IMG/VR virus record: IMGVR_UViG_3300030060_001926
Span: 1 to 64,000 of that record
Strand: one strand, 5' to 3'
From: an uncultured virus (IMG/VR IMGVR_UViG_3300030060_001926)
Lineage: Duplodnaviria; Heunggongvirae; Uroviricota; Caudoviricetes
Length of the DNA: 64,000 nucleotides
Shown: piece after piece, positions 39,305 through 59,500 of the stretch
Layout: every line of letters begins with the position of its first letter
How positions within the stretch are numbered: position 1 is the first letter of the stretch
Position numbers and translations under genes: made by a program
Notes under the pieces: generated by a model
Seen by the model: only the letters and a program-made list of their open reading frames with translations
Told to the model about the DNA's origin: nothing
Database searches by the model: none

Positions 39305-39655
39305 CTAGCCATCAAGTTCTCTTGCACCCAATACCATACACTTAGGAATTTTATGCACCTGAGAGAACTCAGCAGGCCCAACACAAGCAACTACAGCATA
39401 TTGATAATCATCTTCATGGACAAGATAACCAACAGTATTCATTACAGGTAGCTTTGCTCTTGCTGCTGACCTTGTTTCATCTTTATCAAGCCACTCCGAT
39501 CCACCTGTAGTTTGTGCATCTATCCATTCAATATACATGATCTTGGGTAGCTTTTTAACTACAGTATACTTAGCCGAAGAAGTATTCTGAGTTGAGGACT
39601 TCTTTGATGTCGAAGTCATCCGATCTTTGTGGGACTTCAGGGAGCTTGATTTCAT
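39305..39655 (-). CDS. Conserved phage hypothetical (W.DA...W...TVGYL type); true start probably ~39540
   Basis: Motif pattern common in small phage proteins. Confidence 0.55.
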   Translation of the reverse strand: MKSSSLKSHKDRMTSTSKKSSTQNTSSAKYTVVKKLPKIMYIEWIDAQTTGGSEWLDKDETRSAARAKLPVMNTVGYLVHEDDYQYAVVACVGPAEFSQVHKIPKCMVLGARELDG

Positions 39656-42021
39656 ATTTCCTCTCCAAATAACTTTTGAATTTTTCTAGTGGGTTATCTT
39701 TATGGATCAAATAAAAGTTGTATCTAAGTATGTGATCCATACAATCAACGTCAGGACCATATGTCCCATACGAATCATGGACAAAACTAAATGCAGTAAT
39801 GCCTTTCTTTAGCATGTCTGCAATTGTCATAAACATATGAGCAGCGTCCCAACTATGTATAAAGTTAGGACTAACCGCCAAGAACTGGGCATCTTCATCT
39901 AGCTCTTCGCTAAGAGTAGAAAATACTAGTTGTTGTTTGTTGAATAGCTCAGCGTATGAGATACGCTCAATGATTTGATTGTATACATGCTGAACAACAA
40001 AGCCAGAATCAGTTGCCCAAACCAATGGAAGGTTCAGAGAATTGATAATTCTAGTTACATCACGAAGATAATCTTTGCCACGGTTAGGCTCTTGCATAAC
40101 ACCAGACAAACCATCTTGCAAGGCACGGCTCATCTCAACAATTGCACCGCCCCTCTCTTCACGATCTACCCAANNNNNNNNNNACCCAATCAACATGGCC
40201 TTCTTCTTTGACATACTTTTGAATACCATAAAATGTAAGGCCATATGCATCACACATGGTGCTACGCTTAGCAACCTTACGAGGCAAACCATCAGGCCAG
40301 TAGTCAACAAACTTATCATACCATTCAATACTATCCTCGTTTGAATCCATTACCTCATAAGCATTGTTAGCTACATATTGATAAAGGTCTTGTGGCTTTT
40401 TGCTTGGCAAAACATTTGTAAGTTTAGCAAGCTTACTGTCACGCATAATAGCAGACCAGTGTTGAACACCATTGTTTGCACCATCCTTTTGGATAGGTAG
40501 CTGTGTCATACCATCTGTTCTGCATAATTCAAAACAAGCAGCAAGACGTTGAAAGCTAGGGTTCTTTTTCTTAGCTTTTGATTGCCAAGTGCAGTTAGTA
40601 TATGGGTTTTCTACATACCCACGGATCTCATCCATGTTATCATCAACCCATTTAACACGTTCATCATAACTAAGTTTATCTTGATCAAACAAGTTAGCAG
40701 TATGAACCTTAAGCCAATACAAGCCACGCTCTGTTTGGGGAACAGGCTTAGCAAACTGAATCAATGCACGATCAAAGTCAATGCCTTGACATGACAGCAG
40801 TTCACATACAGTATATGCACGACCACGAAAGTCAAGCGTGTATGGCATGTAAAAGAAGCCAGCGTCTTTCATTTTACGGGCAAGCTCTAGACGAACAAGC
40901 ATACGACTACGAGACTGTTCTTCTTTGTACCACTCACCCCATGCTTCTGTTGAATCAGCCATCCATTTTGCTTGCTCTTTCTTAGTACCATCTTCAGGAT
41001 ACGGACGAGAGAATGCAAAGTCTCTGAATGTATAAGCAGGTAGGTTTGCTGTTCGGTGATCAGTATAAAACAGATCTGACATAACCTCGAAAATCTTTTC
41101 GTTGATTGACCATTCTGTATTCATCATAGCATTCAAACCATCAAGAACCATCTCGCTTGGCTTGGAGTTGTAGTCCCTAGGATCACAACCAACAGGATGA
41201 TAGCGTTTGATCATACGCTTACGAATCCAAGGCGACAAGAAACCACCATCTTCTTTTTCTGTATGTGGAACAGGAGGACAAAGCATAGGTCGATAAACCA
41301 TACCGCCAAGCTCTAGAAGATTGTGTCGTTTATGAAGTTCACGAAGAACATCAGGTGAAAAAGAAATAAGCAAAGACTTTTTCTTACGTCCAGTCCACAC
41401 TACCTTTGATGCAATGATATCAGACTGCATTGCAATCCGAAGCATGTTGTGACCAAAGTCTTCTTTTTGTTTAGGCGAATACTTATGTACGTCACCCATT
41501 TTCTTAGTAAAAGCACGGCATCTCTTTGGAGTCCAGTTCTTAATGAACTTAGATTGTCGAGTCCAGTCATCTTTAAACTTTTTCTTAGCTTGTTGATAGT
41601 TATTAATAGCGATAACATCATCAGCAATAAGTTTAGCTACTGATTGTGCAGAAGGTGCAGTCAATGGAACACCTTGAACAAAATCAATATTAGTTAGCGT
41701 CTGTCGAGACAAGAACATATTAATAACAGAACGAATTGTAATGTCTGCCATCTTAGCAGCACCAACAGAAAGCAATGGAGCAAGCCATGCTGGATTCTTT
41801 GGTCCTTCACAAACCTTATCAATCCACATTTGATAGTATGGAGTTAGGTGAATAACAGCAGACTCAAGCAGCAACTGCTCAGGTTTGCCTTCATCTTTTG
41901 CACGTTCCCAGTCTTTCCAGTACCGCTCTACACCAGAATCAACAAGCTCTTCCTCCCATGCTACCTGTTCGTTCTTTCTGTTTTCTTGTTCGACTACAGT
42001 TAGTTCATCCCATAGGGACAT
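39570..42021 (-). CDS. T7-type single-subunit RNA polymerase (canonical, ~811 aa after closing the N gap)
   Basis: 'PMLCPP', 'DFRGRAY', motif A 'DGANNGVQH', 'PQDLY', motif B 'RKVAKRSTMCDAYG', 'PNFIHSWDA', motif C 'VHDSY'; the two ORF-track pieces join across the 10-N gap. Confidence 0.96.
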
Positions 42022-42774
42022 TTACTTCTCCTTAGTTAGTGCTTCCCAGCTTGTTGGAAATAGTCTAGAAACTTCATCTCCAATAGCAGAAGCAAATTGT
42101 TGGACTTCCCATTGTGCATGGGAATCAATCCGTTGCTTGTAAAATCTAGCATACGAAGCAAGCGAACCAGTCCAATACCATTCAGTCAAACACCCCTGAG
42201 GCAAAACAAATCTTGCTTGCTCTGGTGCAACACCTTCAGAAATCAATCGCTTATAGGCCATGACACACTGAGATACAGCATAATGATAGTCACCATCAAT
42301 GCACATAGCGTCAGCTTCCTTGTCGTACTGTAGCCATCCACTTGATCCTTGCTTAGCTCCATTTGTAGGACACGCACGCCATCGAGGATGATACCACTCA
42401 GGATCAGACTTAACATAACGACGAGAAACTTCATTTTCAACAAATCCTTGTTTGTGCTTGAACATCTGAGTCCTAATAGAAATAGGAGCCTTGATGCGAA
42501 ATGTAATTTGGGGATGGGCAAAGGGTGTCCAATGATTATGCTTAGCCAAGTAATTAATCAACTTAACATCTTTATCAGACAGTCTCTGCAAATCTTCTTT
42601 ATGGTATGTAGACCGACTAGAGTCAAGCCTTTGCTTAGCTTTAGTATCTTCAGACCAGTTTGATTCCTTGTCAAAAGAAACTCTAGCAGAGTTAACCACT
42701 GTAAGATCAGATCCCATGTGATCAATGAGAGTTACCTCACCGAGATCGGGGTATTCCATAACCATGGTTTTCAA
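42022..42774 (-). CDS. thyX: FAD-dependent thymidylate synthase ThyX
   Basis: 'VVNSARVSF', 'HWTPF', 'QMFKHK...NEVSRRY', 'EQARFVLP', 'HAQWE'. Confidence 0.95.
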   Translation of the reverse strand: MKTMVMEYPDLGEVTLIDHMGSDLTVVNSARVSFDKESNWSEDTKAKQRLDSSRSTYHKEDLQRLSDKDVKLINYLAKHNHWTPFAHPQITFRIKAPISIRTQMFKHKQGFVENEVSRRYVKSDPEWYHPRWRACPTNGAKQGSSGWLQYDKEADAMCIDGDYHYAVSQCVMAYKRLISEGVAPEQARFVLPQGCLTEWYWTGSLASYARFYKQRIDSHAQWEVQQFASAIGDEVSRLFPTSWEALTKEK

Positions 42775-43210
42775 GATCCTTTAACATACAACTAGGAGTT
42801 TGACATCGTAGTTGTGGTATATTATTTGTAAACACTAGCATATTCTTTACCCAAGAAACACAATCTCTTTTGTTCTTATACAGACCAGCAGTATAAAACC
42901 AATAGTAACAAGATGCAGTATTTGTTGTATGCAAATTACCTTCTTGTTGTATTTCATGTAGTTTCTTATGGGTATTACCAATGTATATCTCCTGACACGG
43001 CTGCTTAAAGCATCGATCAGAAACCCTGTCCTTCATCCACCTTATCTCATTATTAGAGAATGGATGAACAACCCAATCGTTTACACGCAAAGCTAGATGA
43101 GTAACAGTAGTATCACATCCTACCAATTCTAAGATAGGATTGTGCCACTTCATATAGCCTGCTTGCAAATGGTTTTTCCAACAATATCCAAGTACACTAA
43201 TATCATTCAT
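42737..43210 (-). CDS. Permuted papain-like (NlpC/P60 superfamily) protein
   Basis: 'VTHLALRV' His before 'DCVSWVKNML' Cys, then 'TPSCM'. Confidence 0.55.
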   Translation of the reverse strand: MNDISVLGYCWKNHLQAGYMKWHNPILELVGCDTTVTHLALRVNDWVVHPFSNNEIRWMKDRVSDRCFKQPCQEIYIGNTHKKLHEIQQEGNLHTTNTASCYYWFYTAGLYKNKRDCVSWVKNMLVFTNNIPQLRCQTPSCMLKDLENHGYGIPRSR

Positions 43211-43288
43211 AAGAAAAAAATAGGGGGAGGTCTACACTGCTCTTTGCTCACGATGGCACTGCCTTTAGGTGTAGTCCCTCCCCCCATA
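43211..43288 (-). terminator. Long hairpin terminator downstream of the DUF932 gene
   Basis: Minus strand GGGGGAGG..CTACAC-(loop)-GTGTAG.CCTCCCCC followed by TATTTTTTT. Confidence 0.7.
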
Positions 43289-43291
43289 TCC

Positions 43292-45299: not shown

Positions 45300-45436
45300 T
45301 ATTTAAAATTTAGACATCCATCAGCTCACATCAATAAGCTAGGTTATTTGGCAAAGATACTACAGTATACAGGCGTGTTGCCATTTACACTACTGGGCCT
45401 TCTAGGCCACTACCTAGGATCATGCCAGCTACAAAA

Positions 45437-45656
45437 GCTGAGCAGGCAGGATTCGAACCTGCATCTCCTAGTATACTGTTGTATACCTTTGTAAGCTTTC
45501 ACGAATACGTTACTTGCAGTATAAGGATTTCACGGCCTCGTCCGGAATCTATACCGTAGCGAGGCCCGCTTTGGGCCTAAGAACTATTTATACTCGCCCA
45601 AACGAGTCGTACTTATGATGGATGCATCCATAAAGACGAGGGGTCCCATAAGTACA
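45437..45656 (-). ncRNA. Structured RNA ending in a tRNA-like T arm
   Basis: GCAGG-TTCGAAT-CCTGC at the 3' end; upstream hairpins GTACTTATG/CATAAGTAC, TTTGGGC/GCCCAAA, GGCCTCG/CGAGGCC. Confidence 0.45.
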
Positions 45657-45666
45657 TTAGTTCAAA

Positions 45667-45853
45667 AGTGGGCAGGATTTCTTGATTACCTGCAACGTTT
45701 CGGAACCATATCAAGTTCTAATATGTCCTACTTTGTACCACCTACACGAGCCTGACTAAGGCTGGCTCATCCGATTGGACTCTGCCAGATGGGTCACCAT
45801 CTTGGTAGTTGTGCGTTAGCCCTATGGTAAAGGCTTGTTCCGCCACCACAGTC
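45667..45853 (-). ncRNA. Expanded tRNA-like structured RNA (~185 nt)
   Basis: 5' GTGG-TG-GCGGAA...CGC (Leu-like D arm), 3' GCAGG...AATCCTGC-CCAC, several internal hairpins. Confidence 0.5.
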
Positions 45854-46404
45854 TAGCCTGATCGAGGCATAGACTTAGTTTGTTGTGTTGTTTGGCTGCA
45901 CCGTTTGGGTCACCCCCACTCGCAGTTCCGGACTACGATAGGCTTTGTGTTTAGAGAGCGGCAGCACACTCTAGCGTCAGTCTATATTACACCATTTAGG
46001 GGAGTAGACTGACCGCCATACAGTCCCCGAGGCATGGCGTATCCTCCTACATAGCGTAGGAAGTAACATCGCCTCTCAAACAACATCAAAGAGACAGCCT
46101 GAGGTTGCCCTCAAGTTGCCCTGTGCGTCCCTTGTACGGGACCACACTTATTTCATGGTAGCATGAGCCTAGGTGAAATAACTTTTTAAGACCCTCGGTG
46201 TTTATTGCACCACCCTAGCGAACAGTACGCTACGATCCTGTTCACGGCCATCTTTTGGTACTCCGTTTGTCTGCATGACAACAGTTGCAGGCACGGGCCA
46301 GCCTGAATAGCACCTTAGTCCCCCGAAGGGGACCAAGGGCCAGAGAGAGAGAATCACCCTGCATCCCCCAGAAGGGGACGTAGGGCGAGAGAAAAGAGCA
46401 GACC

Positions 46405-46659
46405 CTAGAGAGTGATGGGCTTGCCTTCTGCGTCCACGAAGGGATCTTCGGGCCACAGCTGGGCAGCCTTCTCATTCAGCTCCTTGCGATCAGCTTCTCC
46501 CCACCGATTCTGCTCGGTAGCACCCGTGTCCGGGTCCTTGATCGCCAGCTCCACTCCGTAGCAGGACTTGAACCTGTTACGCCAGTAGGCCAGAGCCTTG
46601 GAAGGGTCCGAGGGAGGCCCCTTAGGACCTCGTCTCTTCCGTTGAAGGATGGTCGTCAT
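46405..46659 (-). CDS. Early hypothetical protein (GC-rich region)
   Basis: 84 aa, GGAG RBS. Confidence 0.65.
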   Translation of the reverse strand: MTTILQRKRRGPKGPPSDPSKALAYWRNRFKSCYGVELAIKDPDTGATEQNRWGEADRKELNEKAAQLWPEDPFVDAEGKPITL

Positions 46660-47023: not shown

Positions 47024-47060
47024 TAGAAAAGAAACTCCCCGCCCGGTAGGGCGAGGAGAA
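47024..47060 (-). terminator. Rho-independent terminator after the second RNAP
   Basis: Minus strand CTCCTCGCCC-TACC-GGGCGGGGAG then TTTCTTTTC. Confidence 0.75.
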
Positions 47061-47082: not shown

Positions 47083-48936
47083 CTAGGCTCGAAGCAGGAC
47101 AGCGTCAGCGGGAAGGGCATGGTAGACACGCCCGAGAGTTTCCGCATTCTCGCTCATCACCTCGTTGTACGCCTCGGTGGCGACACGTTCCAAGATGTGC
47201 ATGTGATTCGGGTGAACCCCAAACGCATCATGGATGGAGGTGACGAAGATGCCCAAGGCTCCCAGTTTCCGAATGATCCGAACTGCGATCAGTCGGTCGA
47301 GCATGAAGATCCTTTTCGCCAAGAGCGGCGTTCCGGAATCTTCCAAGGTGTGAACGTAGGTCGAACAGCTGGGCTGTCCGATGACCTTGAAGTTCTCATC
47401 CCTTCGCCTGTACCGAACAGCACGGGTCAGGCCCTTGTGGACTTTGAAGGGTGAGGTCTGGTACTCGTAGCCATCCGTTCCCCTGTAGATGGGGAGATCG
47501 CCGTTGGAGAGGTGATACTTCCAGTTCTTCCGGATCTCTTCCTGAAACGAATCAAGGAAGGGGAACTTGCGATGGAGGACTCTCGTCAACTTCTTCGAGA
47601 GCTTGCCAATGGCTTCCATCTGCTCATCGGGGGACAGGTCCTTACCGATGTGTTCGAGCAGAATCGGATGGATGGACGGCAAACGCAATCCATCTTCCCC
47701 GAAGTTCCACTCACCGAAAGCGTCCTTGCTCATGTCCGTGAGCTTGCACGAGATGGCACTCTCGCCCCCGCCGTACTGGCCGGGAGTAATGCAGCTCTTG
47801 GAGATCGGCTTCAGGTCATCCAAGGAGTGAATCCTGAGATTACGGATGCTATCCGTGAGACCCTGTGAGAACCGATCATGAGCACTGAGGAAGTGCGGAC
47901 TCGCAACGTTCACCATCTGATGGTGTTCCGAGAAGTTTTGCCTCGCTGCGATGAGACCCATGCCCTGTGCGACAAAGTCGCGGTACACGGTGTAACTGGT
48001 GCTACCAGTCTCTCTGGCTTCGAGCCAACCGCGAGCAGCGGCCAACTCATCAGCGAACTTCTTGCCCTTCGCGTGGAACATCAGTTGTTCCTTGCTCTTG
48101 GCATCGCGATCCACTTTGTTCGCCCACGCATCTCTCATCGCGTCGGTCCACCGCCTAGTCCCGAAGGATTCGGTGATGTGCCTGCGAAGATTGAGCCAGC
48201 CCGCGTCCGTCAACTTCTCAGAACGCCCCTGCATGACGCACCGGAGGAACCGGCTGTAGACAGGGTGAAGGGCCTTCGGGTACATTCGACCCGACTCGTC
48301 CATGCGGGAAACAACGAGGTGGAACAAGTTTTCCTCGATCCGGTCGAAGAGGTCTGCCAGCTTATCGCCGGAAACCTGATCCTCTTCCGAAAGAAGGGAC
48401 TCGATCACCTCATCCTCGTAGTCGTAGAAGATCTTGTTACGATCCTCTTCCGACAAGCTTTCACGGAACCGCTTGACATCGTCCCAGTTCGACTGGTTGA
48501 TGGTCCACGGCTTGTCCGTGAGGAGCTGCATGGCCTCCGACTGCTCGTCCGAGACCTTGAGGTCAATGCGACGAGCAACGTGTGGTTGCACGTTGGGAGG
48601 GGTTCGGTGGGCGAGACGACGCTGAGGTGCGACCCACTTGTCCCGGTCGAGCCGTTCCAAGTTGTCGTCCAGTCGTTCGAACACGACCTTCTGCACCTCA
48701 TTCATCGAAGACACCATCTGGATCTTGGTCTCCCGTCCGTTCCTCTTGAGAGGTTCGGTTTCGAGCGACAGTTCCGAGCGGAACGTCATCCAAAGTGAAA
48801 TGGACATCTCCGACATCATCCAGCTTTCGGACTTCTTGTCCTCCAGCCACGGCTTGAGCTTCGACTGGAGGAGATCGTCCGTCAACTGACGGAGCTTCGC
48901 CTTCGAGTCGTTAGCAAGCGTCTTACAGAGTTTCAT
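47083..48936 (-). CDS. Second, divergent and shortened T7-type single-subunit RNA polymerase (617 aa)
   Basis: 'MDESGRMYP' (DxxGRxY), motif A 'RDFVAQGMG', motif B 'KPISKSCITPGQYGG', motif C 'TSIHDAFGVHP', in correct order. Confidence 0.8.
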   Translation of the reverse strand: MKLCKTLANDSKAKLRQLTDDLLQSKLKPWLEDKKSESWMMSEMSISLWMTFRSELSLETEPLKRNGRETKIQMVSSMNEVQKVVFERLDDNLERLDRDKWVAPQRRLAHRTPPNVQPHVARRIDLKVSDEQSEAMQLLTDKPWTINQSNWDDVKRFRESLSEEDRNKIFYDYEDEVIESLLSEEDQVSGDKLADLFDRIEENLFHLVVSRMDESGRMYPKALHPVYSRFLRCVMQGRSEKLTDAGWLNLRRHITESFGTRRWTDAMRDAWANKVDRDAKSKEQLMFHAKGKKFADELAAARGWLEARETGSTSYTVYRDFVAQGMGLIAARQNFSEHHQMVNVASPHFLSAHDRFSQGLTDSIRNLRIHSLDDLKPISKSCITPGQYGGGESAISCKLTDMSKDAFGEWNFGEDGLRLPSIHPILLEHIGKDLSPDEQMEAIGKLSKKLTRVLHRKFPFLDSFQEEIRKNWKYHLSNGDLPIYRGTDGYEYQTSPFKVHKGLTRAVRYRRRDENFKVIGQPSCSTYVHTLEDSGTPLLAKRIFMLDRLIAVRIIRKLGALGIFVTSIHDAFGVHPNHMHILERVATEAYNEVMSENAETLGRVYHALPADAVLLRA

Positions 48937-49202
48937 GGTGAAACCCTTCCTGTCTCTTGCGAGACTGCTTGGTTAGTGACAGAGCCTGCAACGTTGCAGA
49001 CTCAAGTCGGCACACAACCTTTCGGTCATGCACAGAACGAAACCCACACTACGACTAGTGTGGATAACTCACACTCACTCCCGTACACTACACATCCTTG
49101 CGTAGAGGAGTCTTTGAGTCATAGCACGGTAGGTACATCCTTGTACTTAAGTGCTTCCAAAAATCCTGTCTCACCCGGTAGGGCAAGACAGGGGGGTTGA
49201 GT

Positions 49203-49574
49203 TCAGGTGAACAGCTTGAGGTCCTTGACAGCCACGCTCTTGTCGAGCGTCCACTCGGTGAGGTTGAAGTAGGGTTCGGGAACCCAGTGCAACTCTTCAC
49301 CCAGCTGATTGGCCGTGACGCAGACACGCATCACACACCAACGCGTCCTTCCGCCGCCAATCCTCTGAGCGAAGACGTGCGGCTCCGAAACGAAGCTGTC
49401 GTCGGACTCCGGCACGTAGTCGTGGAGCTTCTTGATCTTGTCGATCATCTTCTCCAGCTCCGGGCCGTTGCAATCCTGAAGTGCCTTCTCGAAAGAAGAC
49501 GCGAACAGGACGTTAGTCCTGAACTCTATCGGCGTGCCTACAACACGACGATGCACGGTAATGGTAGCATCCAT
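49203..49574 (-). CDS. Early hypothetical protein
   Basis: 123 aa, GGAG RBS, GC-rich codons. Confidence 0.6.
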   Translation of the reverse strand: MDATITVHRRVVGTPIEFRTNVLFASSFEKALQDCNGPELEKMIDKIKKLHDYVPESDDSFVSEPHVFAQRIGGGRTRWCVMRVCVTANQLGEELHWVPEPYFNLTEWTLDKSVAVKDLKLFT

Positions 49575-49686
49575 AATGCTTACTCCATTAGAGAAACAGT
49601 GTTAGCTCATCACGCGATGAGTTAGTACTGCGGAAAGCCTCAGTCACCCGTTAGGGCAGCTGAGACTGAGTGAGTCTCTGGGGGTA

Positions 49687-49956: not shown

Positions 49957-50054
49957 TTGCTATTCCTTTCTAAGAATAGAGGGGTAACGGGGGGTAGCAC
50001 AAAAACAATTTATACTACATGGCCTCGTGGATATTCTCGACCCCCTAGTCGATT

Positions 50055-50249
50055 TTACGGTCCACCAATGCTACCATCTGGGTTAGTATCAAGAGCTGCA
50101 CTTAGTTCTTGAAACTTTTCAACTTGCCCATCTCTAACTGTTTTAATTGCACCAATTGATCCTGCACCCATCACAGTGCCAAGGATCATGTATTCACCAG
50201 TTTGCATCCCACGTTCGTCTTTTAAAAATTGTTTAATAGCTGTAATCAT
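50055..50249 (-). CDS. Flp/Fap (type IVc) pilin-like protein
   Basis: 'KQFLKDERG|MQTGEYMIL' matches the Flp prepilin G|xxxxEY motif; 64 aa; GGAG RBS. Confidence 0.75.
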   Translation of the reverse strand: MITAIKQFLKDERGMQTGEYMILGTVMGAGSIGAIKTVRDGQVEKFQELSAALDTNPDGSIGGP

Positions 50250-50581: not shown

Positions 50582-53500
50582 TTACTGTCCGAACAATCCT
50601 TTCGGTGCTTCTTGAGTATCCCTGTCAATAATAGAGCTTACGACATCTTCGGGTTTGGAAGTAGGGGTAGTGATTTCGGGCGGCGCGGGTTGTTGGAGCG
50701 CGGCGGAAGAGGGTTGATTAACGGGGGCGGGGGGAGTGCCTATATTTTCAAGGGACTGCACAAGAGCCTGCCTAGTGTTAAACTCTTTAATTACATCTGG
50801 AATATTTCCATCTAAAACCTGCTTATACATTTCCTTGGTATCATTATTCCACGTAATGGCTGCATGACTGCTTCTCATTCCGTAATGCAAGTTTGGAGTT
50901 TGAGAGCTGCCTGTAGTTCCTCCTCCTCCTGTTCTTCTGTTTGAATCCCTTGAGATTCCATCTCCACCTAGAGTGTACACACCTAATCTTATAGCTGAAT
51001 CTGCATAAGGAATAATTCTGGTAGCGTTTAACATGTCTTGGTTATTGGGCATTGTAGTTAAGCCAAACATAGCTGCTCCTGCTTGAGCACCAGTAGATAC
51101 AGCTCCTAGTGTAGTACCTAGTGCAGCAAAGGGAATGAACCCAGTATTCTTAGACAATGCTCTAGAGAAGTCATATTGACCGGGGAATTTGCCTTGTGCG
51201 ATTCCGTCAATACCCATAGCAAGGACAGGGCCTAGAAGACTTAGCCATCTACCTAACAGAGGAGTTCTCACAAGTAGTTTAGAGAACTTAGCAAATCCGT
51301 CTTCTTCATACTCTTCTAGAATATCATCTAGTTCAATTCCTGCAGCTAATTGAAGTGCGGTCATGTAAAGCATATCCATGAGTAATAGACTGGTAAGACC
51401 AAAGGCTGTTCTACCCACGCTGCTCCTACTAGTCCTTCTAATCATTTGTTGACTAGCGAACAGTACAGGGTATCGACGATAGATTTCAAACAATGCACTT
51501 GGAGTATCTAGCTCTCCTGTTCTTACGTCAAATACATTGGGAGTAAGAATAGCTTCTTCTACGTACTTCCTTTCTACTTCTTTCAATCCAGTAATTACAT
51601 CTAGCTTTCGGTTATAGTCTTGTCTGTCAAGTCTAGAAGAGCGAGTTGTAAAGAGTTCGTGACTCATTTCAAAGGGTGAGTATCTACCTTCTTCTGGCAT
51701 CATGGTTTGCATATCAATGACTTTATCTACCTGTAACAACCCAGCCCTCATTAGATAAGATACAAGTTGTAGATCGCCTTCAAAATTACTGTACCCAGAT
51801 TCTTTCATAGCTCCCTTTAAAGCTCTCTCTTGTTCTTCTATAGGTAATTTATCAATATTTTTCTCTTCTAATTTAGTTGCTAGCTCAAGCAGTTTACTTC
51901 TTCCTTTACTATCTAAATCTAATCCGCTTTGAATCCAAGAACGAGCATTGATGGCTCTAGCAGCAGTAATATTTTTAAGCTGCCATTTAGCCAGTCTCAT
52001 TTGTTCGTTACCCATACCTTTAAATAATTTCATAGTTATGCCATCTTCTTGGGAACCAAAAGGTTTTTCAAACTCAGGTAAGTATCCTTGTGTCATTGAA
52101 TCAATGAGATAAGAGAAATCTTTAAGAACTCTTTTTCTTTCTTCTCTATTTGTAATACCCATAATAGGAGCGAAAGCAGTCCTAATAAATCCTGTTAAGT
52201 TTCTTCTGCCAATTAGTTCGTCCAAAGCAGAGTACCCGTTCTCAACAATAGATGTAGCTAAGAATAAGTTACCACCAAAAGCAATTCTAGTGACAGCATT
52301 AGCTACTTCTGGTATAGCTGAGTCTATTGCGTTAGATGGACTAAGCTCTGTGTTTGGTCTTACCTTTCGCATTGCGTTATGCTTCTCATTTAAGATTGTT
52401 ACAGTATCTGAAATTTGGCTCTTTGTTCTTGGGTTATTTTCTCCCTTACTGTCTAAGATAGCGTAGTTAGAATTATTAACAGCACTTAAGAGATTCAACA
52501 CTTGCTTAACATCACCGTGAACACCAAACTCTCTCATTGTTTTCTTTTCAGAAACTTCGTTATAGAGTCCGTGTCTAGCATTTTCTGCAAGAGCGGTTAA
52601 GTCAGTAACAAAGAATTCTTTCATATCATCGTGAGAATTTAACATTGCCTTAACACTAGGTAAGGCGAAGTTATCATTAGGATAGTAAGCTCCTACTGCT
52701 GATCTTTCTAAGAAGTTAAAGAAGATATGATCTAAAGGATTTGTCTGTACACCAAAAGCTGAACTAAGAGAACGTGCTTTAACTCTTCCCTCTACTCTAA
52801 TGTTTGGAGTAATGCCTAGATTTTCCTTAGTCAAGCCTTCTAATCTTCTTGTGTTTACATTTTCTACAGTCTCGATAAACCCTTTGTAAGCTTCTTTAAA
52901 TCTAGTTGTTTGAGTTCTAGTACCCTTAGCAAACATTTGATTAACAGTTACGTTTCCTTTGGTTAGTTGATTCATTAGTTTGGTCGAACCTAATCTAACC
53001 TTATTTAAAGCCATAATATCTCCGCCCTGCAATTTGCTATCAAGTATCATTACCTTGGCTCTTACGTCTCCTGTTTTATCTGTAATAGAGTATTCTAAAA
53101 TAAAGTCGTACAATACTCTGTGATTTTCTTTTAGATTCTTAAGGTCACTAAAGCCTTTAGCGTTGTCTCCCAAGTGGGGTAAGAATCCTGCAGCAAGCAT
53201 CATAGTTCCTTCTACTCTGCCATTTGCATTAAATTCTGATATTAGTTTCTTTTTAATTTCAGCCTTTGCTATATCTACGAATGTTCCCTTTGCTGTAATT
53301 AAATCACTGTTAACACTAGTGCTTAGTCTATAAGGAACTACATTAGTAAAGCCTGTCCCAAACTCTCCGATAGATTGTCCTGTATCAATATTCTTTTCAG
53401 CCATTTGCCTAAACGTACTAGCCATTTGATTTAGCTGTTCTTTGATTAATTGTTTTTCTTCTTCAGAAAGTACTACCCCTAGAGCATCTTCAGATAAATC

Positions 53501-56500
53501 ATATTCGTAACTACCAGCTACAGCTCCTTCATCTACGCTTTCAATAATCTGAACATTCAATACCTTGAATACTTCTTGAGTACTCTTCTTCATTTTCTCT
53601 TCGCCACGTACAGTACTGTATAGAGGTCCGTTTAGTATTTTTACAATTTCTTTTTTATTCTCTCTCATAGACTGAGTAAAGGAACTTAATAATTCTAACT
53701 CACGACGAACTGACGGAGTTCCTCTTGTGTTTGTAAACCCACCAGAGTTAGTAACAACGTTATCGTCAATCAGAGAAGTAAGTAACAAGGCAATTAAGTT
53801 GTGAGAGTTCCAAGTACCTTGGTGACCTGTATCTCCTAACAAAGCACCAACTAACCCGTCTCTTAAGCCCGGACTCATGTTATTTGCGAGGGAACCTAGT
53901 CCTCTATTTACTGGTTCTCCGTAAGTATTAAACAGTCCTTCAGCAAGGTAAACAAAAGTAACAGCCTTTTCAAATGAATCTCCTTCTACTAGTACTCTTT
54001 CTAAATCAATTACAACTTCATCTGTTGGGTTTCGTACTTCATTTTCTAAGTCCTGCCGTTGTGTCTCAGCTGCATACTTACCTTTAACTTGATCTAAGCC
54101 TCCAATATATTCGTACCTAGTCATAGCTATAGTAGAAGCCCCTTCTCCAGCAGTTCCCAAGCCTACTGGTTCTCCGTAGTATCCTTCGCCCTTAGCCATG
54201 ACAATATTATCTAGTTCAGTTTGTTCTTCGGGAGTTAATGAGTCCTTTGCCTTGAGTTCATTTTCCTTTCTAATCATGTTTCTAATTTCTAAATCTTTTA
54301 CTGGATCTACTTTAAGGACTTCTAACTTGTCCATTTTCTTTCTCCACCCAAACCTTTTATCTGCAATGTCAGTACTATCAAATTGATTTCCAGTATAAAC
54401 ATCATTACTGCTATCGTATCCGAAGACATTCAAAGCCATTCTTCTCATCTTCTTATCAAATTCTACATTGTCTGTTTCAAATGCACCTCGTAGAGAAAGC
54501 ATAGTGTTAGACAAGTAGCCCATCATTCTTTTAATAGAGCTAGTAAACTTGCCCCATATACCTAGTTCTTCTGTAGTCAATCCTCTAATAACAGGTTGGA
54601 CATCAGCGAGTAAGTATAGAGAAACAAACCCAGCAATAAACTCTTCTGGATCTTCTATATATCCTAGGAATTCTTCGTTTGCAGCTTCTGTTTCTACGCC
54701 ACCATGCCAAGCTATTACAGCTTTTTTCATCATGCTTCTGCCTGCAGTACTTTGCGAAAGACCTACAAGTTCCATATACTCTGGGCTAAAGTCTTTAATA
54801 AATTTCAATCTAGCAATGTGGCCTAGCTCGTGAGCAATTATTTCTACAGCAGTAAAAGAATCTTTGGCTACTGATCTAAAGTTAGATCCTAGTCGAATAG
54901 TAAACTTACCGCCTGCTCGTTCAGCTTCTGCTCCTCGTTTGAGAATTTGATCCAAAGCTTTGAATTTTAATTCATGAACAATATCAGGGTTTAGCATAAA
55001 TGCTCTTGCAAGTAGAACTTTAACTGCGACTGATTCTTTTTTATCTATTCTTCCATTATGCACTAGCTCATCAATTTGTTTCATTTGGTCTCTTACTAGC
55101 GGTTGCCAGAAAGGATCAAACGTTTCTACTCCATCCCCCGCCTCAATCTTTTTAATAACATCAGTAAGTTCCATAGTAGATCTTCCTACACCAGAATCCC
55201 AGTTCTGTTCAAAAATAGATCCCGGCAATTCATCTCTACTAGTTATATCTGTTAACTCTCTAATAGCATTTCTAATTGCATCTTGCATTTCTCTTTCATC
55301 TTGTACAGAAATACTTCCGTCTTCAGCTGGAGTAACAACTCCCTTTTCAATACGAGTTTGCAAGAAAGAATCATAAGCGTCATCAGGATTTAAAGATCCG
55401 TCTGGATTTTCTAAAAGGAATTGACGAGCTGCATAGTGATGCTTGTTGTTTAGTCGAACGCCTTCATCAGAGATATTCATCTTTATTCTGGCAGACAAGT
55501 CCATCGCTGATTGAAGATCGATAGGCCAGCTATCTGCCTCTAACTCTTCTGGTTTGAAGAATAGTTTAACTTTGTTTTTTGTAAGATCTAGATTTGGATC
55601 TTCTAGCTTTAAAGCAACTAATCTAAGTTTATTAAACGCTGTTTGAGAACCGTTTCTGGTTTCGACAATTAGAGTTTCTAGTTCTTGTTTTAAAGTTTCA
55701 ATTTCTGTTCCCGGTCCGATAGTATCTCTGCTTAACATGTGGACTAGTTTTCTTACTGGGCTGATATAAGATTCTCTCCAAGAGTCAACAGATGTACCTA
55801 GGTTTCCGTCGTTCCATCTAGCTCCTTCTCCAGAAGAGTAGTAGTCTAGATCTACAATCTCTACTATTCGCCCCTCAACGCTTGTCAGAGGATCCCTAAC
55901 ACTTCTGAGGGTAACTCCCCCTTCTTCGGAGGAAGCTCTTAGAAGGGACTCAGAGTCGTTTAAGGCAGCATGTTTAATCGCTGTACCATCGTATCCTAAG
56001 CCACTGGCTACTGCATCTTGCAAGGGAACTGCTCTTACTACTTGACCATTGTTATCTATCTTTACTCCTAACCCCTTGTTAAGCCAACTACTTAGAGTAA
56101 GGTCTCGCATTGTAGTAGCATTTTCAAGAGCCACAAACATTTTCATAGCTTCCTGAGGACCTAAGATTATCTTAGCATTTTTAGCCGTAATCTTTTGAGA
56201 GGTCATAAACATCATACCAAAACCTACAGCTGCTCCATACGGACTCTTTGCAGCTTCTCCTTCTCTTGATTTTCGTGAGATCTGGAGTCTGTATTGGTTT
56301 GTTTTCTTACCTTCTCCTTCCTTTACGTCTTGGTATATAACTTCTTCAATACCTACCTCTAATTCAAATGAAGGCATTCCGGCAACATGCTGTCTAGCTA
56401 ATTCTCTTATCTCTGTTCTCTCTTGAATAGCTTCTTCCGTAGTCATGCCTTTGCCTATCTCTTGTTCCCATGTAGTAGGATCCATAGCAAACTTAGAATA

Positions 56501-59500
56501 CTTTCCTTCCTTGTAAGTTCTTAAGACATTACCATAAGCTTCGGTATATAAGATAGCGGCTAAGAATTTAGCTTTATCTGAACCTTGGACTGCCCACCCT
56601 TCTTTTGTTAAGTCTGAAACTTCGAATAAATCAATCGTTTCAATCTCTTCTCCTTCATCAACTATAAGGGTATTGTAGTCTGCATCTGTACCAAACTTAA
56701 AAGCATCGTCAAGCATAGTTCTTCTTAACAGCGTACCATCTGGATTATCTTCAGAAGCAACTGAAGTAAGGATATCAATCCATTTCATATCGTCTGTTGG
56801 AGGATTAACTACTGCTACTGGATCTCCTCTTCTTGCAATCTCTAGCTTTCTTCTTCCTTCTGGATTTTTAATGTCTCTAGAGTATCGAGCTACATCGTGT
56901 AGTCCGCTAATCCAAGCGTTCCTGTGAGCAACAGTATCTGAAGTTTCAACAAGATCCCTCTCTCTAACCCTTAGCATAACATCGCGTCTTGCTCTTTCTG
57001 CTTCTTTAATAACATAGAACCTAGCGAAGTTTGAAGGCTCTTCTTCTAACTGCCTCTCTAGTCCTCTATCCCTAGCCCATGAATGTACTTCGTAATATAG
57101 TTTTGCAGCTCTTTGACCAGCGTTAGATCCCATATCAATGGCAATGTGTGCAGGCAAGACAGGAAGAACTTGAGGCAATTCTTCTGCATTCCAAGGCGAG
57201 TAGCCTCCAATGGCTTGTCCTCCTACCATAACATCTTCATCTCTAAGAGTCTCTTGATAGTTTCTAATCGAGTGTAGAGGTCCTAGTAAGTTATTTAATC
57301 TTTCTTGAATATGCAATCTTTGAAGTTTAAAGAAACCCATATCATAGTATTGAGATTCTTTATACTTAGGTCTCACAGCCATAGGTCCCTTTCGACCTGA
57401 AGTATGAATCATTACAGAAGTAGGATTATTTTCAGATACATGGTAAGGAGTATATCTAAAAGCTTGGTCAGAAGCCGCGACTACTGCTTTATTTACGAGT
57501 CCTCCTGCCTTATTCTTAAGTTTAAGATATCGGCTTTTTGTCTTAGCTCTTTTCCACTCAGACATTTCGAATTCCATTTCTTGTTGTAGACTTCGGTGTC
57601 GTCTTTCTGAATGATCTCTCCAAGATTCTAAAACCTTTTCTAAGATAGAAGTTTCAGAAACTTCTTCGGTATAATCAGGGAATACATCTGCGGGTGGCTT
57701 GTCGTATCTAGACCATAACAGCATTTCTTGTTTAATCATTAAGTCTTCAACCTTATCTTCCAACTGTTTGTCTGTCATTCCGGAATCTCTGTCTTCTCTC
57801 AATGAAGGATCTCTAAGATCAAACATGCCTAAAGAATCTGCATTATCTTTGTCTGTTTCTAAGAAAGCGTCAAATTTAACTAGAATTTCATCTCTACTTA
57901 ATCCTTCAGCATCCTCGCTCTTAAGGAAATCAAGGAAGCTTTCGTAGTATTTTCCTGTGTCTTTGTCTTGATAAAGAGATTTTCTTGCTACTCTTTCTAA
58001 AGATATGCCCATAGTATCAACTTGGTTACTTGTCGCATAGTCTCTAGTAGAGTTTCCACTAGGAAGCATTAAGTGATATAGCGCGTGTTTTTCAAACCCA
58101 AGGTAATCGTTAATATCAAAGTCAGTAAGACCTAGTAGATCAGCAGCTTCTTGCATTCTTTCAGCATTTAATCTGTATTCTTGAGAGTTTTGAATGTTTA
58201 AAGCTCTTAAATATCCAATAGTTTCTGCCGAAAGTTTGTCTTCTACTCCTGAAAGAATAGCTTGGAACTCTGAATAATTTGGTGATCCGGGGTGGATGGG
58301 TTCCCCTGCTTCTTTTTTCTCTTCTAAGAACTTCTTAGCTTTTTCAAATCGCTCGTCCCATCCCTTTGTTTTCTTCCATTCTTCAAAACTCATTTCGCCT
58401 TGTTTAGTATCTAGTCTCCACATTTGTCTTAACTTAGCATCTAATAGATCAATATGAGTAGCTGTGTTTTCTAAAGATTCTCCTAGGGCTTTATTGTCCA
58501 TCTTCATAAGATCACGCCAAGCATCAATCAAGGGCTTATCTCTATCTTGATCAATCATAAGATACTTATGAACTAAAGTTTTTGTTTTATCGTTAGACCC
58601 TAAAGCAAGCTCTACTAGTAATACTCTAGTTTCATGGTGTCCGGATTGACTAAAGATAGCCTCTCTAATAACTTTAATGTTTTCTTCTGATGGTTTAATA
58701 CCTGCTTCAACCATCGCATTCCAGCCCTCTCCACCCTTAGAAAACTCTTTAATAAAGTTTGGCATACCGCCGCCATAAATTTTTCTCATCACTGGAACTT
58801 TAAAGATACTTCTTAGTTTTTTAATTGCTTCAGCTTGCTTCTTTATTTCTTCATCTGTTTTTGCTTTTTCTTGTAAAGCAAGATAATCTTTTACAGACCT
58901 AATATCAGTATCTTGAATGATCTTAAAGATTTGTCCTAATTCAGAATCAAAACTTGTAACTCCTGCTAAACCCTTGATTGCTGCTAACATATAAAAGTCT
59001 AATTCAGCCTTGGGCTTACCTCTAAATCCTCCGCTAGCTATTCTTTCAATAATTTCTGGGCCAGTCAAGGTCTCTCCATCTACTTCTAACGTTGCAGTTG
59101 GATCATGAGCAAGAGATAGTAGCTTGTGTTCAAACACACCACTGGCTGTTCTATCGCTCCAGTTATCTAAAGACATTAGCATGTCTAAATTAACTCCTGT
59201 TCCTTCAGCCTCTCTAGCTTCTCTTAACTTCATTACTCTTTTAATAGCAGCATCTGTAAAGCCTTTGAACATAGGACCCATAGCTTCAATTGCCATTACC
59301 TCGCCAATTCTACCTAGAGGCACTAACACATGATCGCCGTGACTTAAGTCATACATTAATCCTTCGCCTGTATCAGCTAGGTTTCTTCTATCGATCTCTA
59401 CTTCTTTACCATCGACCTCTACAGTAATGACTCCTTCTTCTACTCCCTCGTTAAACATAACCTTCTCTTGAGTAATCTGGTCATGAATGAATCCTTGTGC

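Follow-up and report, generated by a model that had tools for sequence, protein, structure and literature searches.

Whether a T7-like phage can run its transcription programme as a relay of its own single-subunit RNA polymerases (RNAPs) is the question raised by the window studied here, a 64,000-nt stretch of DNA from an uncultured virus. A first-pass annotation saw three such polymerases in one genome: a canonical enzyme, a shorter divergent one and a vRNAP-like domain in a giant protein. We examine the structure of the contig, the three candidate proteins and the GC-rich block that holds the shorter enzyme, and weigh the orders of gene expression that these features would allow.

Two phages in one contig

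The 82,250-nt contig to which the window belongs is a metagenomic scaffold joining two related marine T7-like podophages at ~45.4-45.9 kb, in the region of a pistol ribozyme. Phage A, from 1 to ~45.4 kb, comprises early genes, three tRNAs, a canonical T7-like RNAP, replication and structural genes and one terminase. Phage B, from ~45.9 to 82.25 kb, comprises a second late module, a 4719-aa giant protein and a GC-rich island with a 617-aa polymerase. The two late modules are divergent (TerL 49%, tail tubular A 40% and tail tubular B 34% identical), and the only nucleotide match between the two ends of the contig is a weak one of 159 nt at 67% identity. Against the related genome G001, identity is 59-87% for genes of phage B (TerL 81%, a 283-aa protein 87%, tail tubular A 72%, tail tubular B 59%) and only 31-56% for those of phage A. 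The join zone contains the following features.

45371..45924, no strand: chimeric join zone, sequence common to phages A and B, from contig breaks and depth
45531..45607, minus strand: pistol ribozyme (Rfam RF02679, 51.7 bits against a gathering score of 34.5, E 1.8e-7)
45662..45873, minus strand: manA-like RNA, sub-threshold (RF01745, 37.8 bits against a gathering score of 55.2, E 3.7e-7)

Contigs of run X1 break at 45371, 45566, 45818 and 45924, loose ends occur at 45566 and 46082, and the depth of 29.1 at the join zone is the sum of that on the A side (16.1) and the B side (12.9). Independent runs each hold one side, with X2 covering 45668-60000 only and X3 40348-45327 only. Because the contig switches phage here, the T7-like RNAP on the one hand, and the giant and the 617-aa polymerase (hereafter mini-RNAP) on the other, belong to different related phages. 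The first-pass annotation had named a chimeric join at 46.2-50 kb as evidence against its reading; the GC-rich block itself is not such a join, and the switch lies just downstream of it. A foreign insert is ruled out, as the block is joined to the giant gene both in an independent contig (L015, equal to 51546-46463 at 99.9%) and in a second study, where an X2 contig covers 46271-50866. Pistol matches also lie 3' of the island elsewhere, in L019 (two), L017 (one) and G004 (one).

The idea of three polymerases in one genome thus fails for this chimeric contig, but the genes for the giant, the mini-RNAP and the T7-like RNAP do stand together in G001, a 63,394-nt contig free of N, and in G004, which is 57,086 nt long and free of N in bases 19550-46625. 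In G001 the path from RNAP through the late genes and giant to the mini-RNAP does not enter the shared region. The order in G004 is giant, box 1 (a conserved element described below), island with mini-RNAP, pistol ribozyme, early genes and tRNAs, and T7-like RNAP; this assembly could in principle conceal a silent join like that of our contig (G000), and strictly, co-occurrence is proven by G001 alone. In G002 the link from island to RNAP crosses an N gap. The clade genomes G001 and G004 encode a T7-like RNAP of ~811-835 aa together with a compact RNAP of 590-619 aa, and the island occupies the same place in all four related contigs and in six short metagenome contigs.

Two polymerases and a giant protein

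The candidate polymerases map as follows.

39570..42021, minus strand: T7-like single-subunit RNAP gene of phage A, from Pfam, PHROG and motifs; ~811 aa if the gap is an overlap
40174..40183, no strand: 10-N scaffold gap inside the RNAP ORF, the sole N run of the 82,250-nt contig
47083..48936, minus strand: compact single-subunit RNAP of phage B (mini-RNAP, P0001, 617 aa), from profile, motifs and AF2 model
50582..64000, minus strand: giant ORF of phage B, 4719 aa, with its start codon at 64741, beyond the window
54818..54832, minus strand: HExxH motif in the giant, invariant in six giants
58772..58813, minus strand: motif-B-like stretch RSIFKVPVMRKIYG in the giant, with R, K and Y invariant in six giants

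The canonical RNAP is borne out by Pfam (RNA_pol at 1.5e-43 in the N part and 6.4e-32 in the C part; RPOL_N at 1.1e-7), by PHROG 414 (6e-110 and 3.5e-40) and by all of the T/DxxGR, A, B and C motifs (DFRGR, KDGANNG, RKVAKRSTMCDAYG and VHDSYG). The gene is split into ORFs of 620 aa and 252 aa solely by the 10-N gap, whose flanks carry the same six bases on both sides and agree in reading frame. Its identity is 50-51% to the RNAPs of G001, G002 and G004 and 29% to that of the best phage isolate.

The 617-aa ORF is a divergent compact single-subunit RNAP, as had been proposed. P0001 alone falls below the Pfam RNA_pol threshold; a family profile search reached 144 proteins at E<=1e-3, and among the 74 of these that were scanned, PF00940 scored above its cut-off in 24 and unrelated families were not met. 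An alignment of 91 sequences has R217 and D320 invariant and G325, K380, Y388, D547, H569 and D570 at >=90%; DESGR, D320, K380...Y388GG and H569-D570 are unchanged even against the G002 homologue at 22% identity. The AF2 model (pLDDT 94.7, pTM 0.93) has only RNAPs as structure matches, among them T7 RNAP (Z 25.8, rmsd 4.2, 451 aligned), human mtRNAP (Z 25.7) and N4 mini-vRNAP (Z 21.3). Judged by its aligned residues the compact enzyme keeps the full catalytic set, and of the two confirmed polymerases neither looks catalytically dead, the fate that the first-pass annotation had allowed for two of its three proteins; both have intact motifs. In a tree the mini clade (22 rows, SH-aLRT 88) falls outside the group of T7-like and N4 RNAPII-like enzymes (93), as a separate, so far unannotated lineage. 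By tblastn P0001 has no match among 50,697 phage records.

The vRNAP-like domain ascribed to the giant was not detected. Searches of Pfam, PHROG and PDB sequences gave no match, and hhalign probability was below 1% against N4 mini-vRNAP and T7 RNAP and 5.6% against a 117-row family alignment, the latter in a region other than the motif-B-like stretch and with a candidate motif C that is not conserved. In a database of 87 sequences the RNAP family HMM detects N4 vRNAP (E 8.9e-16) and gp16 (1.3e-63), whereas the giants reach only E 0.08-0.7. The motif-B-like stretch is the best HMM alignment in three giants, at an insignificant 6.7 bits, and its R1977...K1981...Y1989 is invariant in six giants down to 25% identity; chance alone, however, yields one or more matches to a regular expression for it in 17% of 2000 shuffled versions of the giant. 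The giants have no conserved T/DxxGR, A and C motifs in the right order and no DxDGD-type motif, a DFDxxD stretch lacking its second Asp in P0009. A DESGR match near the motif-B-like stretch was discarded, as it is not kept in relatives. Nor does the giant resemble N4 gp50-52 or T7 gp13-16 over any part of their length. Its homologues span 3397-5489 aa; P0011 has a weak SprT-like match over the invariant HExxH (E 0.004), and the giant of G002 has ART-PolyVal (E 2.1e-10) and RNase H-like (5.2e-8) domains. We read the giant as most likely a large protein of several domains, including an HExxH motif, that serves in the virion or in ejection, rather than as a polymerase; its virion location is presumed.

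The GC3-rich island and its conserved elements

Phage B's mini-RNAP lies in an island of distinct composition, whose features are listed here with the tRNAs of phage A.

46202..50057, minus strand: GC3-rich island of phage B, small ORFs and mini-RNAP, GC 0.51-0.60 per 250 nt
50033..50057, minus strand: box 1, single-copy conserved element (AAATCGACTAGGGGGTC core) at the island head, from sequence conservation
49982..49997, minus strand: box 2 (C6-GTWACCC), ~59 nt after box 1
49638..49668, minus strand: terminator-like hairpin with GCCCTAACGGG apex
49203..49574, minus strand: conserved 123-aa island protein, directly upstream of the mini-RNAP
49165..49192, minus strand: terminator-like hairpin, 12 pairs and T-run, GCCCTACCGGG apex
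47035..47058, minus strand: terminator-like hairpin, 10 pairs and T-run, just past the mini-RNAP stop
35585..35862, minus strand: tRNA-Leu(taa), tRNA-Lys(ttt) and tRNA-Arg(tct) of phage A, from ARAGORN

The GC-rich stretch as a whole (~45.75-50.0 kb) has 51-60% GC against about 40% elsewhere, and the compositional break is sharp at both island borders. The excess lies almost wholly at the third codon position: GC3 is 0.74 and 0.72 in the island versus 0.27 in the giant and late genes, and GC1 and GC2 differ from those of the giant by <=0.05. Relatives show the same shift (G001 0.81 versus 0.23, G002 0.61 versus 0.30, G004 0.71 versus 0.30). In the island TTA/Leu is 0.00, AAA/Lys 0.12 and AGA/Arg 0.06, against 0.38, 0.59 and 0.68, a bias shared by G001, G002 and G004. 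These avoided codons are exactly the ones served by the phage tRNAs, which are encoded downstream; in the matching region G001 has Lys-ttt, Ile-tat, Met-cat, Arg-tct and Leu-taa tRNAs and G004 has four tRNAs. The third-position shift and the avoidance of TTA, AAA and AGA fit an immediate-early block, and the island genes are probably the first expressed.

Box 1 occurs once each in G000-B (phage B), G001, G002 (3 mismatches), G004 and L017; its 18-mer has one mismatch in G000-B and its 17-nt core is exact in G004. The sole other match at <=4 mismatches is on the opposite strand of G002, with 4. The C-run of box 2 is able to pair with the G-run of box 1, a pairing that is invariant and therefore yields no covariation evidence. 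Terminator-like hairpins come after each island gene, and G004 has an identical terminator apex motif 30 nt 3' of its mini-RNAP. The 123-aa protein belongs to no Pfam family, and its G001 and G004 orthologues are 72% and 71% identical. Motif discovery, from which distinct promoter classes had been expected, found none for either polymerase and no repeated promoter motif. Between 44800 and 51000 the coding strand has no sigma-70-like site and the opposite strand has four, versus 4.9 expected. A function as packaging signal, end signal or replication element would suit box 1 equally well.

Order of expression and its alternatives

From these sequence features we infer an order of expression and which polymerase reads what, and we lean slightly towards a two-polymerase relay in marine T7-like phages with the GC-rich island as immediate-early unit. 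By analogy with T7, the island may be the first part of the genome to enter the cell. It would be transcribed starting at the strictly conserved, single-copy box 1, most simply by host RNAP, which is an assumption because the coding strand has no sigma-70-like site. Since the island genes avoid the codons of the phage tRNAs, their GC-ending codons could be translated by the presumed host tRNA pool before any phage tRNA exists, and a hairpin with a T-run would close each gene. The compact RNAP so made would then read the next block, with its structured RNAs, early genes, tRNAs and T7-like RNAP gene, and the T7-like RNAP would in turn read the replication and late genes. The relay first envisaged is plausible with two phage-encoded enzymes; three, or an injected polymerase in the giant, are unsupported.

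It is unlikely that the island is instead an exchangeable accessory cassette from a GC-rich source, its mini-RNAP dispensable or redundant, perhaps a reserve for the case that host defences attack the main RNAP. The abrupt borders and the lack of a homologue in isolate phages would suit such a cassette, as would the divergence of the mini-RNAP, which far exceeds that of flanking genes (35% identity between G001 and G004 versus 80% for the T7-like RNAP; 22% in G002 versus 74% for TerL), although this faster divergence is as compatible with an essential early enzyme as with an accessory gene open to exchange. The constant position of the island argues against a cassette, as do the exact match of avoided codons to phage tRNAs and the retention of box 1, the terminator apex and the 123-aa protein across lineages. 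Moreover, the GC excess is at third positions and persists down to 22% identity, and is therefore maintained rather than that of a fading import.

Improbable, too, is a role of the mini-RNAP at the genome end, where it would provide a primer or transcript for replication, concatemer processing or DNA entry, with box 1 as its single promoter. The T7 end promoters phiOL and phiOR are ascribed such a role at genome ends, and the T7 annotation places the RNAP promoter phiOL at the left end, before the host promoters. Box 1 is found once per genome, beside the mini-RNAP gene, and no promoter motif is repeated elsewhere. But if production of the mini-RNAP depends on box 1, another enzyme must be the first to use it there, and mini-RNAPs vary widely (22-65% identical) while box 1 is nearly invariant, which speaks against a tight enzyme-promoter pair.

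Highly improbable is a three-polymerase relay, in which a packaged and injected giant with a highly diverged polymerase would start at box 1 and read the island independently of host RNAP, leaving early genes to the mini-RNAP and late genes to the T7-like RNAP: the invariant residues and HMM alignment of the motif-B-like stretch, the giant's place directly before the island in all four related contigs, a conserved box 1 unlike a sigma-70 promoter and the size of N4 vRNAP, likewise a very large virion protein (PMC13434306), count for it, and the HMM, hhalign, motif, shuffle and N4/T7 protein comparisons described above count against it.

The favoured two-polymerase relay has partial counterparts in known systems. 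Coliphage N4 (vRNAP gp50, RNAP II gp15+gp16, host RNAP) also combines multiple single-subunit-type RNAPs with a gene for a very large protein, and among its first genes it likewise encodes a compact enzyme that lacks the complete T7 N-terminal domain; the mini-RNAP family alignment matches this enzyme by hhalign (probability 99.6% for gp16, 96.1% for gp15). Here, however, the compact enzyme is one chain rather than two and branches outside the clade of N4 RNAPII, a full T7-like RNAP stands in place of host RNAP as the other polymerase, the giant has no detected vRNAP homology, and all genes are on one strand in T7-like order. Polyvalent virion proteins (Iyer et al. 2017, PMC5512222) resemble the giants of 4.5-5.5 thousand residues and the ART-PolyVal and RNase H-like domains of the G002 giant, whereas the giant of the window has no Pfam domain and is a putative virion component. 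The best predicted viral structure match of the mini-RNAP is the Escherichia phage phiEcoM-GJ1 RNA polymerase (648 aa, E 2.3e-16, TMq 0.58), of similar length but just 14% sequence identity.

With T7-like phages (Autographiviridae), which use host RNAP and then one phage RNAP, the clade shares a canonical RNAP with Pfam RNA_pol and RPOL_N and the order RNAP, primase-helicase, DNA polymerase A, exonuclease, portal, scaffold, capsid, tail tubular A and B, and TerL. It differs in genome size (about 57-71 kb versus about 40 kb), in low identity to isolates (at best 29% for RNAP and 39% for TerL), and in a GC3-recoded leading island, a second compact RNAP, and giant and 1300-aa genes past the terminase. 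The second, compact RNAP, in a GC-rich and probably early block, stands beside the usual phage RNAP.

Polymerase genes of the window

The long ORFs of the window are all on the minus strand. Scanning 68 ORFs with PHROG and Pfam identified a T7-like gene set: RNA polymerase (RNAP), ThyX, a gp2.5-like SSB and a RusA-like resolvase; primase-helicase, DNA polymerase A, exonuclease, dUTPase and ribonucleotide reductase; and portal, scaffold, capsid, tail tubular A and B, and large terminase. The contig is Autographiviridae-like: it has its own single-subunit RNAP, and its replication and structural modules are T7-like and confined to one strand. GC content is 0.51-0.60 at about 45.75-50.0 kb, as compared to about 0.36-0.45 in the rest of the window.

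Protein-coding features central to the analysis
39570-40328, minus strand: T7-like RNAP, C-terminal piece (252 aa; Pfam RNA_pol positions 207-373, E 6.4e-32)
40159-42021, minus strand: T7-like RNAP, N-terminal piece (620 aa; Pfam RNA_pol positions 3-182, E 1.5e-43)
47083-48936, minus strand: predicted compact RNAP (617 aa), referred to as mini-RNAP
49203-49574, minus strand: conserved 123-aa protein, just upstream of mini-RNAP
64741-50582, minus strand: giant ORF (4719 aa)

The T7-like RNAP is read in two pieces, which match positions 6-606 and 615-815 of PHROG 414 (816 positions). The break between them is a scaffold gap and not a frameshift, because the sole N run of the contig (40174-40183) lies there with an identical six bases on either side, and the reading frames agree. 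The first-pass annotation had described a canonical RNAP of about 811 aa, and with RNA_pol found in both pieces this holds if the two gap flanks overlap. The motifs DFRGR, KDGANNG, RKVAKRSTMCDAYG and VHDSYG are present, and the closest isolate, among 2738 phage records with a match, is 29% identical.

The same annotation had proposed that the 617-aa protein is a divergent RNAP. Taken alone, this protein has no Pfam match at E<=0.01, falling below the PF00940 gathering threshold, no significant PDB sequence match and no tblastn match among 50,697 phage records; it has a weak match to PHROG 2051 'RNA polymerase' (E 0.0037). Its homologues comprise five proteins at 98-49% identity and one of 590 aa, from the related phage contig G002, at 22%. 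Invariant in their alignment are E214, G216, R217, D320, G325, K380, P385, Y388 and G390, together with G391, D547, S567, I568, D570 and A571, which between them give motifs T/DxxGR, A, B and C, correctly ordered and spaced. The T/DxxGR motif reads D213-E-S-G-R217, in which R217 is the equivalent of T7 R425. Both R217 and D320 are also invariant in a 91-sequence alignment, where at least 90% of the sequences keep G325, K380, Y388, D547, H569 and D570. By hhalign, IHDAF corresponds to T7 residues 802-850 and DFVAQG to the part of gp16 around motif A, and the motif B residues K380 and Y388, eight residues apart, align to R666-K670-Y678 of the N4 mini-vRNAP.

Searching 1.84 billion cluster representatives with a six-sequence profile retrieved 144 proteins at E<=1e-3, 48 of them at E<=1e-10. 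The Pfam scan covered the first 74 profile matches, outside which lie 69 new matches (P0086-P0154) and P0004. RNA_pol (PF00940) was above cut-off in 24 of the 74 and below it in 2; the sole other family among the scanned matches was RPOL_N, the RNAP N-terminal domain, on three proteins (above cut-off on one). The 46 best-scoring of the 74 have no Pfam family above cut-off. Mini-RNAP thus reaches PF00940 through its family profile and not by its own Pfam score.

Structure prediction points the same way. AlphaFold2 gave a pLDDT of 40.5 with six sequences, and a pLDDT of 94.7 and pTM of 0.93 with the 91-sequence alignment. Among the Foldseek matches listed against the PDB (ranks 1-48), all are mitochondrial or T7 RNAPs, at E 2.5e-13 and weaker. 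VIA-align superposed model residues 31-616 on T7 44-883 (8dh5_E; Z 25.8, rmsd 4.2, 451 residues), followed by human mtRNAP (4boc_A, Z 25.7) and the N4 mini-vRNAP (3c2p_A, Z 21.3), and its top 50 entries consist entirely of T7, mitochondrial or N4 RNAPs. The predicted structure therefore has the right-hand polymerase fold of T7 RNAP. Sequence motifs, family profile and predicted fold identify the 617-aa protein as a compact single-subunit RNAP, which agrees with the earlier annotation, and on all sequence and fold criteria tested, except the Pfam threshold, it groups with the T7 RNAP superfamily. Of the predicted viral structures, that of the Escherichia phage phiEcoM-GJ1 RNAP (648 aa) matches it best (E 2.3e-16), so compact enzymes of the same fold already have precedent.

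In a quick maximum-likelihood tree (61 rows, 380 columns, rooted on the N4 mini-vRNAP), the window protein belongs to a 22-row 'mini' clade (SH-aLRT 88). The T7-like RNAPs, the N4 gp16-like proteins and fused gp15/16-like proteins form one group (SH-aLRT 93), with the mini clade apparently outside it; this placement is provisional owing to several long branches and a short tree search. N4 RNAP II (gp15 plus gp16) is a heterodimer of two products, whereas mini-RNAP is a single 617-aa ORF with relatives of 590-619 aa, and in this tree it branches outside the gp16-like clade. One chain and a branch outside the clade argue against its being an N4 RNAP II.

Two phages in one record, and the gene set in relatives

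The window spans bases 1-64000 of a single 82,250-nt record (G000), which as a whole contains two copies of a late module consisting of tail tubular A/B, a 1300-1700-aa (fibre-like) protein, TerL and a 1280-1350-aa protein. The proteins of the two copies are 34-49% identical, and the sole nucleotide match between the contig ends is weak (159 nt, 67% identity).

Late modules and noncoding RNAs
1-19674 of the window: late module, first copy
64738-82028 of the record (L002): late module, second copy; its TerL is 49% identical to that of the first
45531-45607, minus strand: pistol ribozyme (51.7 bits; Rfam gathering score 34.5)
45662-45873, minus strand: manA-like RNA, below the Rfam gathering score

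Comparison with the 63,394-nt related phage contig G001 separates the record into two parts. Above 45.9 kb, the late module is 59-87% and the GC-rich island (46202-50057, minus strand) 63-70% identical, the giant is 44% identical and the three proteins just upstream of it are 26-60% identical. Below 45.3 kb, all genes are 31-56% identical, the RNAP pieces 51% and 48% and the second TerL 50%. Read depth was checked with Logan contigs from four marine-metagenome runs over 40200-60000. Run X2, from another study, covers 45668-60000 at a depth of 9-12 and almost nothing below, while run X3 covers 40348-45327 at 3-5 and almost nothing above; window parts uncovered in X3 and X4 were weighed only jointly with the X1 and X2 contig evidence. 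In X1, the probable source, depth is 16.1 at 40200-45371, 12.9 at 45924-48442 and 9.5 on the giant, with 29.1 in the bin 45488-46148; contig breaks in X1 fall at 45371, 45566, 45818 and 45924, and loose ends at 45566 and 46082. From this one-sided cover, together with the X1 depth peak and breaks, the stretch at about 45.4-45.9 kb is common to two phages, and the assembler crossed between them. The 82-kb record exceeds one genome and mixes two phages, here called A (up to about 45.4 kb) and B (from about 45.9 kb).

The shared stretch is ORF-free, follows the island, and carries the pistol and manA-like RNAs. Pistol matches occur at the same place in the metagenome contigs L017 and L019 (two in the latter) and in the related phage contig G004, and 77% nucleotide identity is kept across the stretch in a relative whose mini-RNAP is 49% identical. 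A tRNA-like T-arm, GCAGGTTCGAATCCTGC, is seen at about 45450-45470 (minus strand), where neither ARAGORN nor Rfam calls a tRNA. As a separate observation, small 55-89-aa ORFs (PHROGs 727, 10346 and 3477) occur in both contig halves (window 23160-23581, minus strand; record 73958-74382) and are 73-100% identical to their G001 copies, far exceeding neighbouring genes.

A chimeric join at 46.2-50 kb had been named as grounds for rejecting the proposed relay. The contig is indeed chimeric, but the join lies in the shared pistol stretch and the island is contiguous with the giant: an independently assembled 5084-nt contig matches 51546-46463 at 99.9%, and one X2 contig covers 46271-50866. The island thus belongs with the phage of the giant. 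The idea that the polymerases share one genome does not hold for the window contig itself, but the three-gene set is real in relatives, since G001 and G004 each carry the giant, mini-RNAP and T7-like RNAP together. G001, which contains no N, encodes an 818-aa T7-like RNAP (6125-8581), a 4559-aa giant (45462-59141) and a 612-aa mini-RNAP (60973-62811); every late gene is single-copy, and the contig ends 583 nt past mini-RNAP, so that the shared region is not crossed. G004 (57,086 nt, with bases 19550-46625 free of N) has the order giant (a 4764-aa frame), box 1 (a conserved noncoding element), island, 619-aa mini-RNAP, terminator and pistol ribozyme, with the rest downstream, namely early genes, four tRNAs and an 819-aa T7-like RNAP. 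G002 has the same order but a 10-N gap directly after the island (32850-32859, L009/L026). It is weaker evidence of co-occurrence and may be a mixed assembly too, the gap lying where the window record is chimeric.

The giant protein

A vRNAP-like domain had been assigned to the giant, and our searches do not bear it out. The giant has no Pfam, PHROG or PDB sequence match (PDB at E<=10), its core has no match in phage records, and a Protein Atlas search with residues 1301-2600 gave no usable match. Homologues are 3397-5489 aa long and best conserved at residues ~1300-3100; a 'longer' homologue search with the core added one protein, and the alignment is shallow. Scanning metagenome_contigs for relatives of the giant, and genome_contigs for relatives of mini-RNAP, gave no matches. 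A control HMM, built from 117 RNAP-family members plus T7 RNAP and run on a database of 87 sequences, matched N4 gp16 (1.3e-63), gp15 (5.2e-25), gp50 (8.9e-16) and both T7-like RNAP pieces of the window, whereas the six giants scored E 0.08-0.7 in that 87-sequence database. Their best stretch, at 6.7 bits, is a motif-B-like site. By hhalign, the giant region gave a probability below 1% against the N4 mini-vRNAP, T7 RNAP, gp15, gp16 and the mini-RNAP alignment, and an HMM of the giants found nothing in N4 gp50-52 or T7 gp13-16.

A regular-expression scan of the giant found one motif-B-like stretch and one DESGR, of which the DESGR is not kept in relatives. The R, K and Y of the motif-B-like stretch are invariant in the six giants, and the pattern is present in 17% of 2000 shuffles. 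In the RNAP motif check it is the sole invariant element, D1595, D1754 and D2964 being unassignable candidate Asp residues. That the giant holds an injected, highly diverged polymerase is a reading to which we give very little credence.

Two further candidates were rejected. An hhalign match of the giant core to the RNAP family alignment (5.6%) lies in a different region, and its motif C (LLDDAF) and motif A (DYTxE) are unconserved. For crAss-like phages, 10.1101/2020.03.07.982082 gives the catalytic motif of the two-barrel virion RNAP as DFDxD or DxDGD. A pattern scan of the giant found no DxDGD-type (D.DGD) motif, and its DFDxxD at 2207-2212 is spaced differently and reads DFSVQD in the homologue P0009; the giant does not show the two-barrel motif.

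An HExxH motif is invariant in all six giants (window 54818-54832, minus strand). The homologue P0011 has a weak SprT-like match, and the G002 giant (L009) carries ART-PolyVal (2.1e-10) and RNase H-like (5.2e-8) domains. This make-up matches that of large multi-domain 'polyvalent' phage proteins.

The recoded island and a proposed order of polymerase use

The GC excess of the island is located at third codon positions. GC1/GC2/GC3 values are 0.56/0.38/0.74 for mini-RNAP and 0.58/0.44/0.72 for the small island ORFs, as compared to 0.51/0.37/0.27 for the giant, and the GC3 shift is repeated in G001 (0.81 versus 0.23), G002 (0.61 versus 0.30) and G004 (0.71 versus 0.30). The shares of TTA among Leu, AAA among Lys and AGA among Arg codons are 0.00, 0.12 and 0.06 in mini-RNAP versus 0.38, 0.59 and 0.68 in the giant. 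The phage tRNAs of the window (Leu-taa, Lys-ttt and Arg-tct) serve exactly the codons that the island avoids; G001 has these three plus Ile-tat and Met-cat, and G004 has four tRNAs. The phage tRNA genes follow the island on its downstream side. Within phage A, TTA and AGA become more frequent from the RNAP (0.02, 0.16) through the replication genes (0.11, 0.29) to the structural genes (0.25, 0.47). We infer that the host is short of these tRNAs and that translation of the island has to take place ahead of the phage's own supply.

The small island ORFs have no Pfam match. The 123-aa protein is 71-72% identical across phage B, G001 and G004. Over the same span mini-RNAP falls to 36%, and between G001 and G004 the T7-like RNAP keeps 80% identity; the island mixes slowly and rapidly diverging parts. 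That it is an accessory cassette seems unlikely to us, the same GC3 shift marking it in each of the relatives. Complex prediction for mini-RNAP with the 123-aa protein scored 0.00, which is evidence neither way.

Noncoding elements of the island
50033-50057, minus strand: box 1
49982-49997, minus strand: box 2
47035-47058, 49165-49192 and 49638-49668, minus strand: hairpin plus T-run terminators after three island genes

Box 1 opens the island, immediately following the stop codon that ends the last low-GC ORF. It occurs once each in phage B, G001, G002 (3 mismatches in 18), G004 (17 of 17) and L017, in carriers whose proteins are as little as 22-36% identical (range across phages, 22-65%). 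Box 2, likewise single-copy and noncoding, lies about 59 nt past it. Both boxes are nearly invariant across these phages, and the two could form a five-pair G:C stem; the pairs never vary, so the five rows, one of them misplaced, contain no covariation. Box 1 has no sigma-70 look, its CGACT core presumably resembles a T7 promoter, and no sigma-70-like site was found on the coding strand over 44800-51000. Candidate roles are a promoter read by a phage-type polymerase, a signal for packaging or for the genome end, and an origin. A role of mini-RNAP specific to the genome end is likewise conceivable, though we regard it as doubtful.

The terminators share the apex GCCCTAMCGGG, and their lower stems differ but still pair. 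A fourth copy precedes the tail tubular A gene at about 82040-82085 (82075) of the record, and G004 has one 30 nt past mini-RNAP. Distinct promoter classes had been suggested as a target for motif discovery; repeat and k-mer searches returned this terminator family only, and no repeated promoter-like motif.

The most likely arrangement is a relay of two phage polymerases, with an order suggested by gene order, codon use and the precedents of T7 and N4. In T7, host RNAP reads the first genes. Here, the island would be read first, most simply by host RNAP in the same way; the compact RNAP would then transcribe the early block, with its tRNAs and the T7-like RNAP gene, and the T7-like RNAP would transcribe the remaining genes. 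Such a system resembles N4 in that a compact single-subunit RNAP, encoded early, accompanies another polymerase, and it resembles T7 in all its remaining features. A three-step relay free of host RNAP, in which an ejected giant polymerase lies beyond the reach of sequence methods and box 1 is its one promoter at the entering genome end, is improbable. Just as slim is the chance of the order that goes with it, from giant to compact RNAP to T7-like RNAP, with host-type codons at the first step and phage tRNAs needed at the later ones.

In the open-access text searched, no T7-like phage is described as having two single-subunit RNAPs, and no third-position-recoded leading island is described either. 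The N4-like Alteromonas phages of PMC3821669 are a different group from the present phages.

Conserved ribozyme regions can join related phages into over-long 'genomes' in viral databases, and the compact RNAP family (144 cluster representatives in the profile search) is a source of small polymerases for biotechnology. The island may hold the broader lesson. As a probable block of first genes, recoded at third positions so as to avoid phage-tRNA codons, it would be a clear example of codons split by expression time, and the long-discussed role of phage tRNAs can be tested on it directly. If the two-polymerase relay is true, an uncultured marine lineage has gained a compact early polymerase of its own clade, T7-like phages are not confined to host RNAP followed by one phage RNAP, and the gap between the T7 and N4 strategies is narrower.
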